Of a stretch of DNA of 34,089 nucleotides, positions 2,988 through 26,118 are shown in pieces (positions within the stretch are counted from its first letter, which is position 1; every line of letters starts with the position of its first letter). A program made the position numbers and the translations under genes. The stretch lies in assembly GCA_964654075.1 (NCBI GenBank), contig CAZZIA010000001.1, positions 1 to 34,089 of the forward strand, read 5' to 3'. The notes beneath the pieces were generated by a model. That model searched no databases. It saw nothing but the letters and a program-made list of their open reading frames with translations, and was not told the DNA's origin. The DNA comes from an uncultured archaeon. Its GTDB lineage: Archaea > Aenigmatarchaeota > Aenigmatarchaeia > Aenigmatarchaeales > Aenigmatarchaeaceae.

Positions 2988-3755
2988 ATGCTTCAAAAAC
3001 TGTTAAATCTTTTTTTGCTTAAAGATCATCTTATCTATGGAATAGTGCTTGGCTTTTTTGCTGTAACAATCGGTATGCTTGTTGCAACTTTTATATCTCC
3101 TAGCTCACCATCGATTGTCGGCTTATTTTTTGCCACCCTAGCAATAATGCCGGTTACATTTTCTGCATTAAGAAGGCAAGAAGTTGTAAAAATTAAAGAA
3201 GTTTTGCCTAAATATAAGAAATTGGCTGAACTGTATTTTTATTTATTTTTTGGCATGGCCTTGGCATTTGCCTTCTGGTTCACTGTTTTGCCAGAGCCGA
3301 TATCTAGCTGGTTGTTTAAAGAGCAAATACAGAGGTTTGCTATTGGCTATTTTTCTCAGACTTATGCCACATTGCTTAGTATTTTAATAAATAATCTTGG
3401 TTTGGTTTTTCTGTTTTTTATTTTATCAATTGTATATGGCATGGGCTCTCTTTTTTTGCTGAGCTGGAATGCATCAATATTAGGCCTTATGTGGGGCAAT
3501 GCAATGAAAGCTTTGATTTTCTTTTTTGAACCATCGGTCTTCTTTAGAAACACGATTTTTATCCTGCCTTATATGCTTCCTGAGGTTGCAGCATATTTCA
3601 TAGCAGCAATTGCTGGCGGGATAATTTATGTAAACATAATAAAAAAGCAAAAGCTAAAAAATGCAATCAAGGATTCCTTAGTTCTGTTAAATATAGCAAT
3701 AGCCCTAATCATTTTAGCTGCTGGAATAGAAACTGTAATGCTGGCTATATTTTAA
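2988..3755 (+). CDS. SpoIIM/DUF95-like polytopic membrane protein
   Basis: 255 aa with multiple TM segments. 'LSWNASILG' and 'LPYMLPEVAAYFIAAIAGG' match the conserved hG-x-x-E-hP-A core of the stage II sporulation protein M family. Confidence 0.6.
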   Translation: MLQKLLNLFLLKDHLIYGIVLGFFAVTIGMLVATFISPSSPSIVGLFFATLAIMPVTFSALRRQEVVKIKEVLPKYKKLAELYFYLFFGMALAFAFWFTVLPEPISSWLFKEQIQRFAIGYFSQTYATLLSILINNLGLVFLFFILSIVYGMGSLFLLSWNASILGLMWGNAMKALIFFFEPSVFFRNTIFILPYMLPEVAAYFIAAIAGGIIYVNIIKKQKLKNAIKDSLVLLNIAIALIILAAGIETVMLAIF

Positions 3756-4264: not shown

Positions 4265-4396
4265 TGGTGGACCCGCTGGGATTCTCAAAACCCTTTTGAT
4301 TAACTTTTTTCTAAAAGGTTATTTGAACCCAGGATCTCTTCCATGCCATTTCCGGATTTCTCCTAAGGAAGCGTCTTTCCGCTGGACCACGGGCCC
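4265..4396 (-). tRNA. tRNA-Ala(GGC), 2 introns (17 nt at 33/34, coordinates 4348-4364; 40 nt at 59/60, coordinates 4282-4321), CCA encoded
   Basis: Hand fold: GGGCCCG TG GTCC-AGCGGAA-AGAC G CTTCC TT|..|GGCAT GGAAG AGATC CTGGG TTCAAA|..|T CCCAG CGGGTCC A CCA. The G3:U70 Ala identity pair is present. The BHB central helices are TTCC/GGAA and TTCA/TGAG, each with 3-nt bulges. The spliced length is 75 nt. Confidence 0.85.
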
Positions 4397-6090
4397 TTAT
4401 AATTTTTATAAATTTTAAATAATTTATCCACTGTCCTTTTGTTTATTACCTTTATTTTATGACCACCGCTTCCATTAAAATGAGCACACCTATGACTTAA
4501 TACGGCGCCAGAAAATGTTTTTGGAATGTGACAATTATGAGTAAATATTCCAGAGCCGTGCATGAAATTTTTGTTTTTTTCTACCTCTATGTTATAGAAG
4601 TATTTTTTATGGTATTTCCCCCCTTTAACTCTCCTTATTCTAATGTATTTCAAATCTTTAAAGTTCTTTTCATGTTTCATTACCTTAATTTTTCTTATAT
4701 CTTTTTCCAAACCCCTATACTTAATAGCTAAATTACAATACTTCATAAATTTTGGTAAGAAAAATGTTTGTATGGCTATATCTTGCTCGTTTCTTCTTAA
4801 TCTGCCAACTATTTTTAATTTATTTAACAATAAAAGTATGCCGAAAATTAACTCTTTACTTTTAGAAAAGCCGGACAATACTATTGAGTTGGTTCTTTTA
4901 TTTATATTTATTTGGCCGTCTCCAGCAAACCAACCATCAATCAATCCTGCTATAAATTCATCAGGAGCATAAAAAACAAATGGTGGTATTTTTTTATATC
5001 GAGCCTTTTCGCCAAATCCTAATATATTGGATATTATATCTTGTAGAAATCTGCTATACACATATATAACTTTACAATTATTTTTAGTAGTTCTTTCCTT
5101 TGGATTTGCATTAAATCTCTTCTTTAGGACATATTTTATAAATTTATGATACTCTTTTTCATCTAGGTTAAAGCTAAATGAAACTGAACCTGCAGCATGA
5201 TCTATACTACCTTCACTCAAATAAAATCCGAAAAACCTTCCTAACTCATTATCCAGTATTAATTTTGATGGTATAACTGTAGATACGACGCCTTTCTTCA
5301 TTAACAGTCCATTTTCAATTTTTATTTCATCGAGTCTGTTTTTCTCTTTGAAAATGTTAAATAAGTTTATTTCTTTCACTTTTCTTTCAAGCTTCGGTAA
5401 AGAAAATAGTTCTGGTATTCTTATGTATAATTTTTCGTTTAAAATATCTTTAGCTGCACAATTTCTTAGTTTTACATAACCTTTAGGATGCTCATAAGAA
5501 TATCCGTGCTTTGTGAAAATAATGCCATGAGATGGGCTCGTTCTAATTATTCTACCATCTCTTGTAATTACCTTTATAATCTCTTTTTCTTTATTGTTTC
5601 TTCTCATTAATTTTTTAATACTTTTCATTTCAACTTTTCTTGTCTTAATGTCAATTGATATAACATTATATTTTTTTGAAGGATTTACCCATTCAATATT
5701 GTCTAATATATTTATTTTTTTAGCCAATTTAAACTCATTTTCTATGAGCTCGCCGATATCTTTGATTTTTAATCCCTCTCCATCCTCAATAACAATCTTC
5801 TCTTCATATGGAAGGCATAATTCATGTAACATCGTCTTCTGCTTCTCCTCTTCGCTCAATTCATCAAAGTTTTCGCTGACAGCCTCTATAACATAGTGGG
5901 CATCGACGCCCAAAGCCTTCTGCCATATTTTCGGCAACGACCATATCCGCGCATAAGCTCGGCTCGTGCTCTTGAAAGACCGCATGCACACCAGTCTGTC
6001 GACATCAATGTAATCTAGATTTAATTTTTTGACTATATCTTTGATAATTTCCTTTATGTCTGGCGCTGATTCGACTTTCATAAGAATCAT
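4363..6090 (-). CDS. predicted small Zn-metallopeptidase (HExxH, archaeal COG4900-like) interrupted by an intein
   Basis: The exteins (91 aa + 56 aa) read ...RAYARIWSLPKIWQKALGVDAHYVIEAVSENFDELSEEEKQKTMLHEL / CHIPKTFSGAVLSHR.... After splicing this gives HELCH. The last 34 nt of the ORF overlap the 5' part of tRNA-Ala on the same strand. Confidence 0.85.
   Translation of the reverse strand: MILMKVESAPDIKEIIKDIVKKLNLDYIDVDRLVCMRSFKSTSRAYARIWSLPKIWQKALGVDAHYVIEAVSENFDELSEEEKQKTMLHELCLPYEEKIVIEDGEGLKIKDIGELIENEFKLAKKINILDNIEWVNPSKKYNVISIDIKTRKVEMKSIKKLMRRNNKEKEIIKVITRDGRIIRTSPSHGIIFTKHGYSYEHPKGYVKLRNCAAKDILNEKLYIRIPELFSLPKLERKVKEINLFNIFKEKNRLDEIKIENGLLMKKGVVSTVIPSKLILDNELGRFFGFYLSEGSIDHAAGSVSFSFNLDEKEYHKFIKYVLKKRFNANPKERTTKNNCKVIYVYSRFLQDIISNILGFGEKARYKKIPPFVFYAPDEFIAGLIDGWFAGDGQININKRTNSIVLSGFSKSKELIFGILLLLNKLKIVGRLRRNEQDIAIQTFFLPKFMKYCNLAIKYRGLEKDIRKIKVMKHEKNFKDLKYIRIRRVKGGKYHKKYFYNIEVEKNKNFMHGSGIFTHNCHIPKTFSGAVLSHRCAHFNGSGGHKIKVINKRTVDKLFKIYKNYKGPWSSGKTLP
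4534..5817 (-). mobile_element. 428-aa class 1 intein with LAGLIDADG homing endonuclease domain
   Basis: N-terminal Cys (CLPYEEKIVIEDG, block A). Block B is GRIIRTSPSHGIIF. The LAGLIDADG motifs are LGRFFGFYLSEGSI and FIAGLIDGWFAGDGQI. Blocks F/G are YFYNIEVEKNKNFMHGSGIFTHN, followed by the +1 Cys. Codons at both junctions were checked by hand (TGC at 5817-5815; AAT TGT at 4536-4531). Confidence 0.85.
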
Positions 6091-6538: not shown

Positions 6539-6653
6539 TGGTGGGCCAGGCAAGATTTGAACTTGCGATATCTACCTTTCTTAGTGGTTTGTAAGGGTTG
6601 CACGTTTGCCATTAATGACAAACTTAGCGTCATAACCACTAGACCACTGGCCC
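6539..6653 (-). tRNA. tRNA-Val(UAC), 2 introns (27 nt at 29/30, coordinates 6598-6624; 12 nt at 37/38, coordinates 6578-6589), CCA encoded
   Basis: GGGCCAG TG GTCT-AGTGGTTA-TGAC G CTA|..|CC CTTACA|..|A GGTAG ATATC GCAAG TTCAAAT CTTGC CTGGCCC A CCA. The second intron has a perfect CTTA/TAAG central helix. The first has GTTTG/CAAAC plus a relaxed ACGC/GTGC helix. The spliced length is 76 nt. Confidence 0.8.
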
Positions 6654-7319: not shown

Positions 7320-7547
7320 ATGTTAAAAGAAAAATATCTATTTTTATCATTTGACATTCCTAGAGAAAAGGCTAGTTTCAGAGTCAAAATTTGGAGAAGG
7401 TTAAAGGAGATTGAAGCAAGGCAAAAACTTGGTTCTTATTGGATGCTTTCTTACTCAAAACAAAATCTAAACAATTTAAAAAAGATTGTTAAACAGATTA
7501 AAAAATCCAAAGGACGGGCTGAAATAATTGTTGGAAGATTGATTTAG
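7320..7547 (+). CDS. small ChrB-N-terminal/Cas2-like alpha/beta protein (hypothetical)
   Basis: 75 aa. YLFLSFDIPREKASFRVKIWRRLKEIEARQKLGSYWMLSY....GRAEIIVG follows the pattern of ChrB N-terminal-type domains (L-x-Y-x-hP-x-x-x-S-x-x-RV-x-hWR-x-L-x-x-x-GA-x-x-L-x-x-S-VW-x-LP ... G-G-x-A). Its stop overlaps the GTG start of the next gene (taGTG). Confidence 0.5.
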   Translation: MLKEKYLFLSFDIPREKASFRVKIWRRLKEIEARQKLGSYWMLSYSKQNLNNLKKIVKQIKKSKGRAEIIVGRLI

Positions 7548-8365
7548 TGAATAGTGCAAAATTTGATTTATCTAAAATTAAATTTAGTTGGACTGATAAA
7601 AGAAAGAAAATAAAATTGCCGGAAATGTTAACAGAAGAATTGGCAGAAGATATTGGAATTCATATTGGAGATGGGAGTATGTATCTAACAGGTCCAAACT
7701 TAAAAAGCTATGAAATGAGATATTCGGGTGATTCCACAGAAGATAAAGAACATTATATTAATCGAATAATACCATTAAAAGAAAGATTATTTAATAAACA
7801 AATAAATGGAAAGATATTAAATTTTAGAGGAAATGAATATGGATTTGTCATTTGCTCAAAAGCAATTTTTTATTTTTATACAAAAATTATACATATCCCT
7901 TCAGGCACCAAAACAAAAATAGCAGAAGTACCTAAAATGATAATGAAATCTAACAAATCTATTCAAGCTGCATTTATAAGAGGATTGTCTGATACAGACT
8001 TTTCATTAACGTTTAAAAGAAAAAGCACTAAACATAATTTAAATTATTATCCTATGATTACAGCAAATTTTGCAAGTAGAAAATTAGTTGATAATCTTCA
8101 AAAAATTTTAAAGGGTTTAAGTTTTAATGTTGTAATTCTAGATGGAATTAATAAGAGGTATAACAAACATTATCCAACTCATATAATTAACATAAATGGA
8201 AAAAGGAACTTAGAACTTTGGATGAAAATTATAGGTTTTAATAATCCAAAACACTTAACAAAATATTTGGTGTGGAAAAAATTTGGTTTTTGCCCACCAA
8301 GATTATCTCTGAAACAAAGAAAACAAATACTAACAGGAAATTTGGATCCATATAATTTTTATTAA
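7547..8365 (+). CDS. free-standing double-motif LAGLIDADG homing endonuclease-like protein (copy 1)
   Basis: 272 aa. Motif 1 is LAEDIGIHIGDGSMY and motif 2 is AFIRGLSDTDFSL, both retaining the acidic residue. It is a paralog of the 24.0-24.8 kb ORF. The stop lies 1 nt from the 3' end of the convergent tRNA-Ile. Confidence 0.8.
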   Translation: MNSAKFDLSKIKFSWTDKRKKIKLPEMLTEELAEDIGIHIGDGSMYLTGPNLKSYEMRYSGDSTEDKEHYINRIIPLKERLFNKQINGKILNFRGNEYGFVICSKAIFYFYTKIIHIPSGTKTKIAEVPKMIMKSNKSIQAAFIRGLSDTDFSLTFKRKSTKHNLNYYPMITANFASRKLVDNLQKILKGLSFNVVILDGINKRYNKHYPTHIININGKRNLELWMKIIGFNNPKHLTKYLVWKKFGFCPPRLSLKQRKQILTGNLDPYNFY

Positions 8366-8366
8366 A

Positions 8367-8516
8367 TGGTGGGCGAGGTGAGATTTGAACTCACGACATC
8401 TGGGAGTTTTAACTCTCACCAGTTTTTACGCCAGGTTGCCTTATAAGACTGGCGCTCCTTCAGGAACGTATTAACCTGGCTGAGCATCGGGAACACAAAC
8501 ATGTGTTTACCCGCCC
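8367..8516 (-). tRNA. tRNA-Ile(UAU), 4 introns (22 nt at 9/10, coordinates 8486-8507; 14 nt in the D-loop, 8459-8472; 17 nt at 38/39, 8424-8440; 19 nt at 45/46, 8398-8416), CCA encoded
   Basis: Exons: GGGCGGGTA | GCTCAGCCAGGTT | GGAGCGCCAGTCTTATAA | ACTGGTG | GTCGTGAGTTCAAATCTCACCTCGCCCACCA. These give a 78-nt class I cloverleaf with loop CTTATAA and variable loop TGGTC. Each intron has a 4-bp central helix flanked by 3-nt bulges: CGGG/CCCG, CAGG/CCTG, TTAT/GTAA and CTGG/CCAG. Confidence 0.75.
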
Positions 8517-8641
8517 ATCTTTATCCTCACCCAATAAGAATTTATTACTATGAATCAATTTAAAAATATGCATAAAGAACGGTTAATAAATTAGTTAGGA
8601 TATTTATACTTATTGAAATAATAAAATAATGAGGTGTTTTG

Positions 8642-23883: not shown

Positions 23884-24018
23884 GCCCGAGTAGCTCAGAG
23901 GAAGAGCGACTGGCTGTTAGCAAAATGGCTGGAACCAGTAGGTCACTTATGGATAAGTTAAGTGCTTTCCATAGATCAAAGGTTCGAAATGTGGACGGAG
24001 ATCCTGTCTCGGGCGCCA
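23884..24018 (+). tRNA. tRNA-Asn(GUU), 3 introns (14 nt at 37/38, coordinates 23920-23933; 33 nt at 50/51, 23947-23979; 13 nt at 59/60, 23989-24001), CCA encoded
   Basis: GCCCGAG TA GCTC-AGAGGAA-GAGC G ACTGG CTGTTA|..|A CCAGT AGGTC AC|..|AGG TTCGAA|..|T CCTGT CTCGGGC G CCA. The G73 discriminator is present. The BHB central helices GGTC/GATC and TTCG/CGGA restore a perfect ACAGG/CCTGT T-stem and a TTCGAAT loop. The spliced length is 75 nt. Confidence 0.85.
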
Positions 24019-25995: not shown

Positions 25996-26118
25996 GGGGT
26001 AGTAGCTCAGACTGGGAGAGCGCACGAGGATGCTATCCTGCGAAGCTGAAGACCGTGAATGGGATGCTTGGCATCTCATCGGGAAATGTCGTGAGTTCAA
26101 ATCTCACCTACCCCACCA
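25996..26118 (+). tRNA. tRNA-Phe(GAA), 2 introns (18 nt at 30/31, coordinates 26027-26044; 28 nt at 43/44, coordinates 26058-26085), CCA encoded
   Basis: GGGGTAG TA GCTC-AGACTGGGA-GAGC G CACG|..|G CTGAAGA CCGTG |..| ATGTC GTGAG TTCAAAT CTCAC CTACCCC A CCA. Intron 1 has a textbook BHB: CGCA/TGCG central helix, CG|A and AA|G bulges, and a GGAT/ATCC inner helix. Intron 2 has a 9-bp inner helix plus ACCG/CGGG. The spliced length is 77 nt. Confidence 0.85.

Follow-up and report, generated by a model that had tools for sequence, protein, structure and literature searches.

A probable four-intron tRNA-Ile(UAU) gene and its orthologues in Aenigmatarchaeota

Can a stretch of 150 nt in which standard tools recognize no complete tRNA encode an ordinary one, and if so, how many introns have to leave it? 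This question is raised by positions 8367-8516 (minus strand) of a 34,089-nt stretch of DNA from an uncultured archaeon of the Aenigmatarchaeota, referred to here as the window. ARAGORN reported nothing on the unspliced 150 nt and zero tRNAs in the whole window. When Rfam was searched at its gathering threshold, the locus was not among the matches; the other three tRNAs of the window were found, with large insertions. A permissive Rfam scan of the locus gave only an 18.8-bit partial tRNA match covering the 3' part. If the reading given below is correct, standard tools (ARAGORN, and Rfam at the gathering threshold) overlook the tRNA-Ile(UAU) gene completely. Annotations of such genomes would then list no tRNA-Ile(UAU) and give a wrong picture of what the organisms can decode.

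A tRNA-Ile(UAU) locus in pieces

Read from 8516, its 5' end, to 8367, the locus begins GGGCGGGTA and closes GTGAGTTCAAATCTCAC CTCGCCC A CCA, with the CCA encoded at 8369-8367. An earlier note, made from the sequence alone, had proposed that the 150 nt are reduced to a 78-nt class I tRNA by removal of segments of 22, 14, 17 and 19 nt. ARAGORN identified this product as tRNA-Ile(UAU). When all 16 removal subsets were passed through the program, a normal-length tRNA-Ile was obtained solely with all four segments out; it should be noted that the anticodon intron can be absorbed in the intron mode of ARAGORN. Spliced alignment to an intron-poor orthologue, performed blind to BHB motifs, again returned insertions of 22, 14, 17 and 19 nt. 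The two methods agree, and the proposed reduction is thereby borne out. The locus is no assembly artefact, because the identical 150-nt sequence is present in three further assemblies (L084, L087 and L088).

We assign a probability of roughly 85% to the reading that the locus is a functional class I tRNA-Ile(UAU) gene with four BHB introns, located at 9/10, at 20a/21 in the D-loop, at 37/38 and at 45/46. The parts of the gene as predicted from the sequence, together with the elements upstream of it, are as follows.

8367..8516, minus strand: whole tRNA-Ile(UAU) gene, with five exons, four introns and a genome-encoded CCA
8508..8516, minus strand: exon 1, GGGCGGG TA (acceptor 5' strand, U8, A9)
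8486..8507, minus strand: intron 1, 22 nt, position 9/10; missing in L086
8473..8485, minus strand: exon 2, GCTC AGCCAGGTT (D-stem 5' strand and most of the D-loop)
8459..8472, minus strand: intron 2, 14 nt, D-loop 20a/21; an intron at the same site in L001
8441..8458, minus strand: exon 3, G GAGC G CCAGT CTTATAA (D-stem 3' strand, G26, anticodon stem 5' strand, anticodon loop with UAU)
8424..8440, minus strand: intron 3, 17 nt, position 37/38 or 38/39; identical 17 nt in L086
8417..8423, minus strand: exon 4, ACTGG TG (anticodon stem 3' strand, positions 44-45)
8398..8416, minus strand: intron 4, 19 nt, position 45/46; missing in L086 and L001 (ACTGGTGGTC)
8367..8397, minus strand: exon 5, GTC GTGAG TTCAAAT CTCAC CTCGCCC A CCA (rest of the variable loop, T-arm, acceptor 3' strand, A73, CCA)
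8517..8532, minus strand: 16-nt leader GGGTGAGGATAAAGAT
8558..8566, minus strand: TATA-like box TTTTTAAAT within the conserved motif GCATATTTTTAAAT

Orthologous genes and intron turnover

Nine further distinct orthologues, all from other Aenigmatarchaeota, were found by way of the thermosome, a 3'-exon scan and MPG homologues. The synteny of MPG glycosylase, tRNA-Ile(UAU), ACT-ACT and thermosome is common to several Aenigmatarchaeota contigs and indicates orthology. The MPG relatives L090-L092 and L097-L100 were non-syntenic or had no detectable tRNA-Ile beside MPG. The intron positions assigned to the genes are listed below.

L083, L093, L095, L081: a single intron of ~40 nt in the anticodon loop
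L085: introns at 29/30 and 37/38
L086: introns in the D-loop, at 29/30 and at 37/38
L002: introns in the D-loop (about 14/15), at 37/38 and in the T-loop
L001: introns in the D-loop, at 37/38, at 53/54 and at 59/60
Window: introns at 9/10, in the D-loop, at 37/38 and at 45/46
L004: introns at 8/9, 19/20, 29/30, 37/38 and 45/46

Judged by these alignments, the predicted introns of the tRNA-Ile(UAU) orthologues number one to five, at shifting positions. The closest relative of the window is L086 (Logan SRR22388313_123867, minus strand, about 3090-3220), whose MPG is 84% identical and whose flanks and promoter region are near-identical. This sequence reads GGGCGGGTAGCTC and ACTGGTGGTCGTGAG without interruption, which are the exact predicted junctions of introns 1 and 4. 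Junction 1 (TA^GCTC, where ^ marks the cut) and junction 4 (ACTGGTG^GTC) are contiguous in both L086 and L001, and exon 1 runs directly into exon 2 in L086, L001, L002, L081, L083 and L085. The D-loop junction GGTT^GGAGC (GGTTGGAGC) is contiguous in L002, and L001 and L002 read GGTTG-GAGC. Since every orthologue has an intron in the anticodon loop, the comparison with intron-free junctions covers junctions 1, 2 and 4. The comparison with nine orthologous loci, of the kind suggested in the earlier note as a check, thus supports the four-intron reading of the window gene.

The ten inferred mature sequences align without gaps, with a mean column identity of 93%. Across these 10 sequences, 99.5% of the pair cells of the cloverleaf are paired, compared with 34-60% when the partners are slid, and compensatory double changes occur at four cloverleaf pairs. 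The window product has the features of a class I elongator tRNA: a 7-nt anticodon loop, U33, anticodon UAU, a purine at 37, a 5-nt variable loop, U8, A14, G18G19, the T-loop GTTCAAATC and A73. Position 21 is G and not the usual A; G21 is common to L001, L002 and L086. The resemblance to archaeal tRNA-Ile that had been claimed for the product holds, as ARAGORN calls tRNA-Ile(UAU) and the orthologues all carry UAU. From its anticodon, the mature tRNA is predicted to be charged with isoleucine and to read AUA codons.

The gene could instead contain three introns, with the 19-nt segment 4 kept in the tRNA as a 24-nt variable arm of class II type. Indeed, ARAGORN also accepts a 97-nt tRNA-Ile with just segments 1-3 out and segment 4 kept as a long variable arm, and segment 4 holds a 4-bp hairpin (GAGT/ACTC). 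The orthologues make this extremely unlikely: between the same flanks, L086 and L001 show an ordinary variable loop of 5 nt (TGGTC), and a loop of this length is also found in L081, L083, L085, L093 and L095. Moreover, segment 4 fits a strict BHB formed with anticodon-stem nucleotides 40-43, unlike a variable arm, and covariation of the corresponding 45/46 helix is seen in L004, whose insertion of 30 nt is unrelated. The four-intron reading predicts ACTGGTG-GTCGTGAG as a contiguous stretch instead. To our knowledge, tRNA-Ile is class I in all known organisms, which likewise counts against a class II-like arm.

A second class II interpretation, a tRNA-Leu(UAA) with a long variable arm, had been considered and rejected in the earlier note. 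It could draw on a TTAA motif in the D-loop insertion, but no tool found such a fold, the loop CTTATAA with the anticodon UAU is present in 9/9 orthologues, and the intron-poor orthologues are unambiguous class I tRNA-Ile. The rejection is upheld by the orthologue comparison, and the probability of a tRNA-Leu(UAA) is close to nil.

With the four-intron tRNA-Ile(UAU) as the preferred reading, the window and L086 differ by three events of intron presence or absence: L086 is without the 9/10 intron, is without the 45/46 intron and has a 12-nt intron at 29/30. Their exons differ in a single T-loop base. The D-loop intron of L086 is that of the window plus 1 nt, and the 17-nt anticodon intron is identical. 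Taken from the two sequences, these differences point to very fast intron turnover. The pair would thus offer a fine-grained natural series on the gain, loss and movement of archaeal tRNA introns.

L004 (JBHIDR010000004.1, minus strand, about 3270-3470) has introns that differ entirely in sequence from those of the window, while the exons are conserved. The tRNA-Ile(UAU) gene of L004 spans 196 nt and has at least five introns, with perfect BHB helices at four of them; its 45/46 insertion consists of 30 nt of unrelated sequence. A parse of this gene with six introns, based on a duplicated CTAGTG, gave helices of just 3/4 and was rejected in favor of the simpler five-intron parse, which has a 32-nt canonical intron (3/4 paired, outer helix of 3 bp).

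Several minor observations concern the intron sequences themselves. The ~40-nt anticodon intron of L083, L093, L095, L001 and L081 is well conserved and has a direct repeat inside it, GCGTTYAGT...GCGTTCNGTA. In the window and L086, the 17-nt anticodon intron has the look of the ~40-nt form shortened by deletion, with the 3' GCGTAAAA retained. Introns at 29/30 or 30/31 were observed in the tRNA-Val and tRNA-Phe genes of the window and in the tRNA-Ile genes of L004, L085 and L086, that is, in three isoacceptors. In these introns, the conserved exon stretch (GA)GCGC pairs with an intron 3' end GCGT/GTGC/TGCG, followed by AA. From this shared pattern, they may be a related intron family or may have been transposed between tRNA genes.

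Splice sites, processing and the leader

Splice sites were assessed with a cleavage rule that requires a 4-bp central helix and two 3-nt bulges on opposite strands, with the cut after the second bulge nucleotide. All four proposed junctions have a 4/4 paired central helix, and these are the helices named in the earlier note (CGGG/CCCG, CAGG/CCTG, TTAT/GTAA and CTGG/CCAG). The note had further described each helix as flanked by 3-nt bulges. This description fits introns 1 and 4, which are strict or near-strict; introns 2 and 3 are relaxed. In intron 1, the H helix is formed by C4-G7 and CCCG (4/4 Watson-Crick) with bulges TA^A and AT^G and an outer helix of 3 bp. Intron 4 is a strict hBHBh': CTGG pairs with CCAG in the H helix (4/4 Watson-Crick), TG^A and AT^G are the bulges, and the inner helix has 4 bp. 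Intron 2 has the H helix CAGG/CCTG (4/4) and a 3' bulge AA^G adjoining the D-stem; it is a relaxed BHB of the hBH type, because its 5' site TT^A lies in a hairpin loop. In intron 3, the H helix TTAT/GTAA is 4/4 paired including one G-U, with 2 extra unpaired nt opposite the 3' bulge. Owing to runs of A, intron 3 has three equivalent placements that give the same product. TTAT/GTAR is kept in L001, L081 and L083 and, by eye, also in L093 and L095.

A generic strict-BHB scan of the locus returned 19 matches, compared with 20 +/- 7 in shuffles, and so showed no excess. Because such geometry is no more frequent here than expected by chance, the helices on their own say little, and the weight falls on the comparative test. 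When the intron boundaries were fixed by homology, that is, by uninterrupted orthologues, a 4/4 central helix was found in 8/9 introns across the family, as opposed to 2.2% of arbitrary placements that give such a helix in the cleavage register (0.6% with Watson-Crick pairs only). At boundaries fixed in this way, introns 1 and 4 of the window each show four Watson-Crick pairs out of four. The 45/46 helix covaries: the exon change from G42 to A42 in L004 is matched by an intron change from C to T, giving CTAG/CTAG in place of CTGG/CCAG. The 29/30 helix occurs as GCGC/GCGT and GCGC/GTGC, and the anticodon helix as TTAT/GTAA and TTAT/GTAG. Splice-site helices are thus kept by covariation at 45/46, at 29/30 and in the anticodon loop, with few independent events.

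The exact position of the D-loop intron required separate consideration, as the earlier note had given this segment by its length (14 nt) alone. In the placement first used to reproduce the reduction (pre 43-56, window 8474-8461), the cuts lie at the ends of the CAGG/CCTG helix, 2 nt off; under the cleavage rule only 2/4 positions pair, and this placement was rejected. A placement that keeps the GGTTA of distant orthologues pairs at 1/4 and was rejected as well, whereas the placement by the BHB rule pairs at 4/4 and yields GGTTG, as found in the closest relatives. With the cuts inside the 3-nt bulges TT^A and AA^G, the D-loop reads AGCCAGGTTG, with GGTTG as in L001 and L002. The D-loop intron is therefore most likely 8472-8459 (pre 45-58), still 14 nt.

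The following pathway would account for these features. Transcription would start about 25 nt downstream of the TATA box and produce the 16-nt leader. In each intron, 4 nt near its 3' end would pair with the exon stretch just upstream of the 5' splice site, placing both splice sites in 3-nt bulges or, in the case of the D-loop intron, one of them in a loop. As in the established archaeal pathway, EndA would cut after the second bulge nucleotide and an RtcB-type ligase would join the exons. The leader would presumably be removed by RNase P and the 3' end trimmed to the encoded CCA, and the 78-nt product would decode AUA. For tRNA-Ile(UAU), we infer transcription, cleavage, ligation, the order of splicing and aminoacylation. 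EndA and RtcB domains were sought in 20 proteins of the window, and none was found among them.

The proposed BHBs share exon nucleotides. The intron-1 BHB uses G1-G7 and C11-C13, and the intron-2 BHB has the D-stem as its outer helix; the intron-4 BHB uses nucleotides 40-43, which are the outer helix of intron 3. Because BHBs 1 and 2, and likewise 3 and 4, overlap in this way, they could not be recognized simultaneously, and refolding between steps would be needed. In partition-function folding (ViennaRNA) of the primary transcript with its leader, the intron-1 helix had a probability of 0.74 and the intron-4 helix of 0.92. The intron-2 helix was predicted solely after removal of intron 3 (P 0.90-0.98), and the weak intron-3 helix was never favored, with P close to 0 in every context.

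These features also bear on the idea that the gene is decaying and non-functional, its insertions not all being removed, so that no functional tRNA-Ile(UAU) results. In its favor are the relaxed geometry of two of the four BHBs, the unusual G21 of the mature form and a thermodynamic model that disfavors several of the required helices. Yet the exons are intact and almost identical to those of intron-poor orthologues, every stem change is compensatory, the promoter motif and CCA are conserved, the splice-site helices are conserved or covarying, and G21 is common to L001, L002 and L086. In addition, all tRNA genes of the window are interrupted alike, and the organism must therefore process such genes. 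We consider decay improbable and return to the functional four-intron gene in what follows.

The 16-nt leader sets the window apart from most orthologues. The motif GCATATTTTTAAAT lies 26-27 nt upstream of +1 in intron-poor orthologues (L081 and L083) and in L086, and in the remaining orthologues without a 9/10 intron, a TATA-like box precedes +1 by 23-27 nt. The distance from TATA to +1 is 41 nt in the window and 39 nt in L004, and the leader begins where +1 of the tRNA falls in intron-poor orthologues. It is present only together with the 8/9-9/10 intron, in the window and L004, and is absent in the eight orthologues without that intron; L086, with flanks near-identical to those of the window, is without both. 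The two co-occurrences of leader and intron may be non-independent events. The leaders of the window (GGGTGAGGATAAAGAT) and L004 (GGGCGAGGATAA) share the start GGGYGAGGATAA; 11 of their first 12 nt are conserved, whereas the introns have fully diverged. The leader is possibly a functional element.

The first 7-8 nt of the leader resemble the acceptor 5' strand in sequence, and their complement is CCTCGCCC of the acceptor 3' strand. In the MFE fold, the leader pairs with the acceptor 3' strand (P 0.99 in the window, 0.71 in L004), and the true 5' strand is engaged in the intron-1 BHB. Folding predicts that, also in the spliced RNA, pairing of the acceptor 3' strand with the leader would prevail over pairing with the true 5' strand, which counts against the four-intron reading. 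In a folding test on L004, the leader shifted the intron-1 helix from P=0.00 to P=1.00; in the window, shuffled G-rich leaders performed like the native one, so that the effect there is non-specific. A rather doubtful proposal is that the leader acts in cis as a surrogate acceptor strand, pairing with the 3' strand and freeing G1-G7 for the BHB of the 8/9-9/10 intron. If this were true, the leader, displaced and removed only after splicing, would constitute an RNA structural switch that co-evolved with an intron, in a lineage with intron gain and loss at no fewer than eight sites of one tRNA gene.

Alternatively, the leader could be a fifth intervening sequence, within or next to the acceptor stem, that is spliced out and not cut off by RNase P. 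It starts exactly at +1 of the intron-poor orthologues, opens with a near-copy of the acceptor 5' strand, and is identical to its L004 counterpart at 11 of the first 12 nt despite intron divergence; excision as GGG^TGAGGATAAAGATGGG^CGGG would lead to the same mature 5' end. Against this, no placement that preserves the 7-nt acceptor strand has BHB geometry, and the sole nearby 4/4 candidate takes out 17 nt and shortens the acceptor strand. A 5' exon of 1-3 nt would provide no upstream helix, unless the start lies upstream of the prediction from TATA spacing, and the few placements with enough upstream sequence do not pair when inspected by hand. We therefore give little credence to a fifth interruption and retain four introns preceded by a leader.

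The upstream copy GGGTGAG was also tried by hand as the true acceptor strand; it gives G8 or no U8/A9, with helices of 3/4 or worse, and was rejected. In L004, L081 and L083, the tRNA promoter is directly adjoined by a divergent gene that begins MLK.... Only an 8-codon remnant of it, MHKERLIN*, is left in the window at 8551-8583 (plus strand).

Known multi-intron tRNA genes and the surroundings of the locus

Three introns per tRNA, given in the earlier note as the published maximum, is an outdated figure. tRNAscan-SE 2.0 describes archaeal tRNA genes with up to three introns. Four-intron genes appear in Valentin-Alvarado et al. 2024 (PMC11291895), whose Supplementary Data 4 lists four introns in tRNA-Arg(TCT) and tRNA-Ile2(CAT) of Freyarchaeia, and four "observed" by manual count in Leu(GAG) and in Trp(CCA) of Atabeyarchaeia-2. 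Since that supplement tabulates four-intron genes, four introns are not unprecedented. The count in the window gene equals the highest tabulated for any tRNA gene, and that of the L004 tRNA-Ile(UAU) exceeds every count that we found on record. A literature search returned no report for Aenigmatarchaeota and none of five introns in one tRNA gene. The positions 9/10 and D-loop had both been called rare. The D-loop site 20/21 is one of the established non-canonical sites in archaea (20/21, 29/30, 45/46, 53/54 and 59/60 according to a review); 9/10 is absent from the same list.

The best-known parallel is found in Thermoproteales (Pyrobaculum calidifontis, Thermofilum pendens), where BHB introns likewise occupy canonical and non-canonical sites and some BHBs form only once another intron is gone, a pattern that points to an EndA of broad specificity. 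The stated maximum there is three per gene, with an average of 0.84 per gene and at most 71 introns in 46 genes, as opposed to four in one gene and 11 in four genes within the 34 kb of the window. The lineage of the window also differs in belonging to DPANN, in being AT-rich (about 34% GC) and in not being known as thermophilic. The Asgard archaea Freyarchaeia and Atabeyarchaeia (PMC11291895) resemble it in having four-intron tRNA genes, with introns in 92-95% of tRNA genes. They belong to another superphylum, however, and their four-intron cases are given in the supplementary table only, not in the main text, as predictions by tRNAscan-SE/R2DT without orthologue or RNA validation. The Asgard list tops out at four, whereas the L004 orthologue has at least five. 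In C. merolae, the same isoacceptor is interrupted by three BHB introns, located in the D-arm, at 37/38 and in the T-loop; this gene is eukaryotic, its sites otherwise differ, and the ordered removal of its introns was shown by RT-PCR, whereas the window gene is known from sequence.

The DPANN EndA enzymes with specificity loops (epsilon2 of ARMAN-2, and alpha4 with an L3 loop; PMC3239211, PMC5829648) are a likely enzymatic basis for such splicing. DPANN lineages whose EndA has the insertion loop show more tRNA gene disruption (PMC3239211, PMC5829648), and the 2018 EndA survey took incomplete DPANN tRNA sets as a sign of undetected disrupted genes. The newly analyzed DPANN genomes of these papers (PMC3239211, PMC5829648) include no Aenigmatarchaeota. 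Our reading would extend the extreme fragmentation of tRNA genes, known from Thermoproteales and recently from Asgard, to the DPANN (Aenigmatarchaeota). The comparative evidence argues that four introns per tRNA gene are real, with five in a relative, where the main-text literature says three.

The window has a GC content of about 34% and encodes a thermosome, topoisomerase VI A and B, an eRF1-family protein, several aminoacyl-tRNA synthetases, a type IV pilus/archaellum-type ATPase and membrane proteins. The closest named relatives of the thermosome are from Candidatus Aenigmatarchaeota MAGs, with 72-76% identity; a search for the identical thermosome sequence had no match. All four tRNA genes of the window are interrupted, with 11 insertions in total, some of whose boundaries are approximate, and CCA is encoded in all four. 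The three tRNAs found by Rfam, listed below, became valid in ARAGORN only after removals.

6539-6653, minus strand: tRNA-Val(UAC), two segments
23884-24018, plus strand: tRNA-Asn(GUU), three segments (anticodon loop, T-stem, T-loop)
25996-26118, plus strand: tRNA-Phe(GAA), two segments (30/31 and 45/46), canonical site free

The Aenigmatarchaeota lineage of the window thus appears to be unusually rich in tRNA introns, with rapid turnover.

Two further differences between the window and L086 were observed outside the tRNA gene. Between MPG and the 3' end of the tRNA, the window has about 1.1 kb (7320-8365, plus strand) with ORFs of 75 and 272 aa; a Pfam scan of the 272-aa ORF alone gave no match. 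This stretch is missing in L086, where MPG directly abuts the tRNA, and it may be an insertion beside the tRNA gene. At 4363-6090 (minus strand), the window encodes a 575-aa protein whose PhageMetallopep domain is split by an intein that carries a LAGLIDADG domain. In L086, the homologue is intein-free and 136 aa long, and the intein is therefore polymorphic between close relatives.
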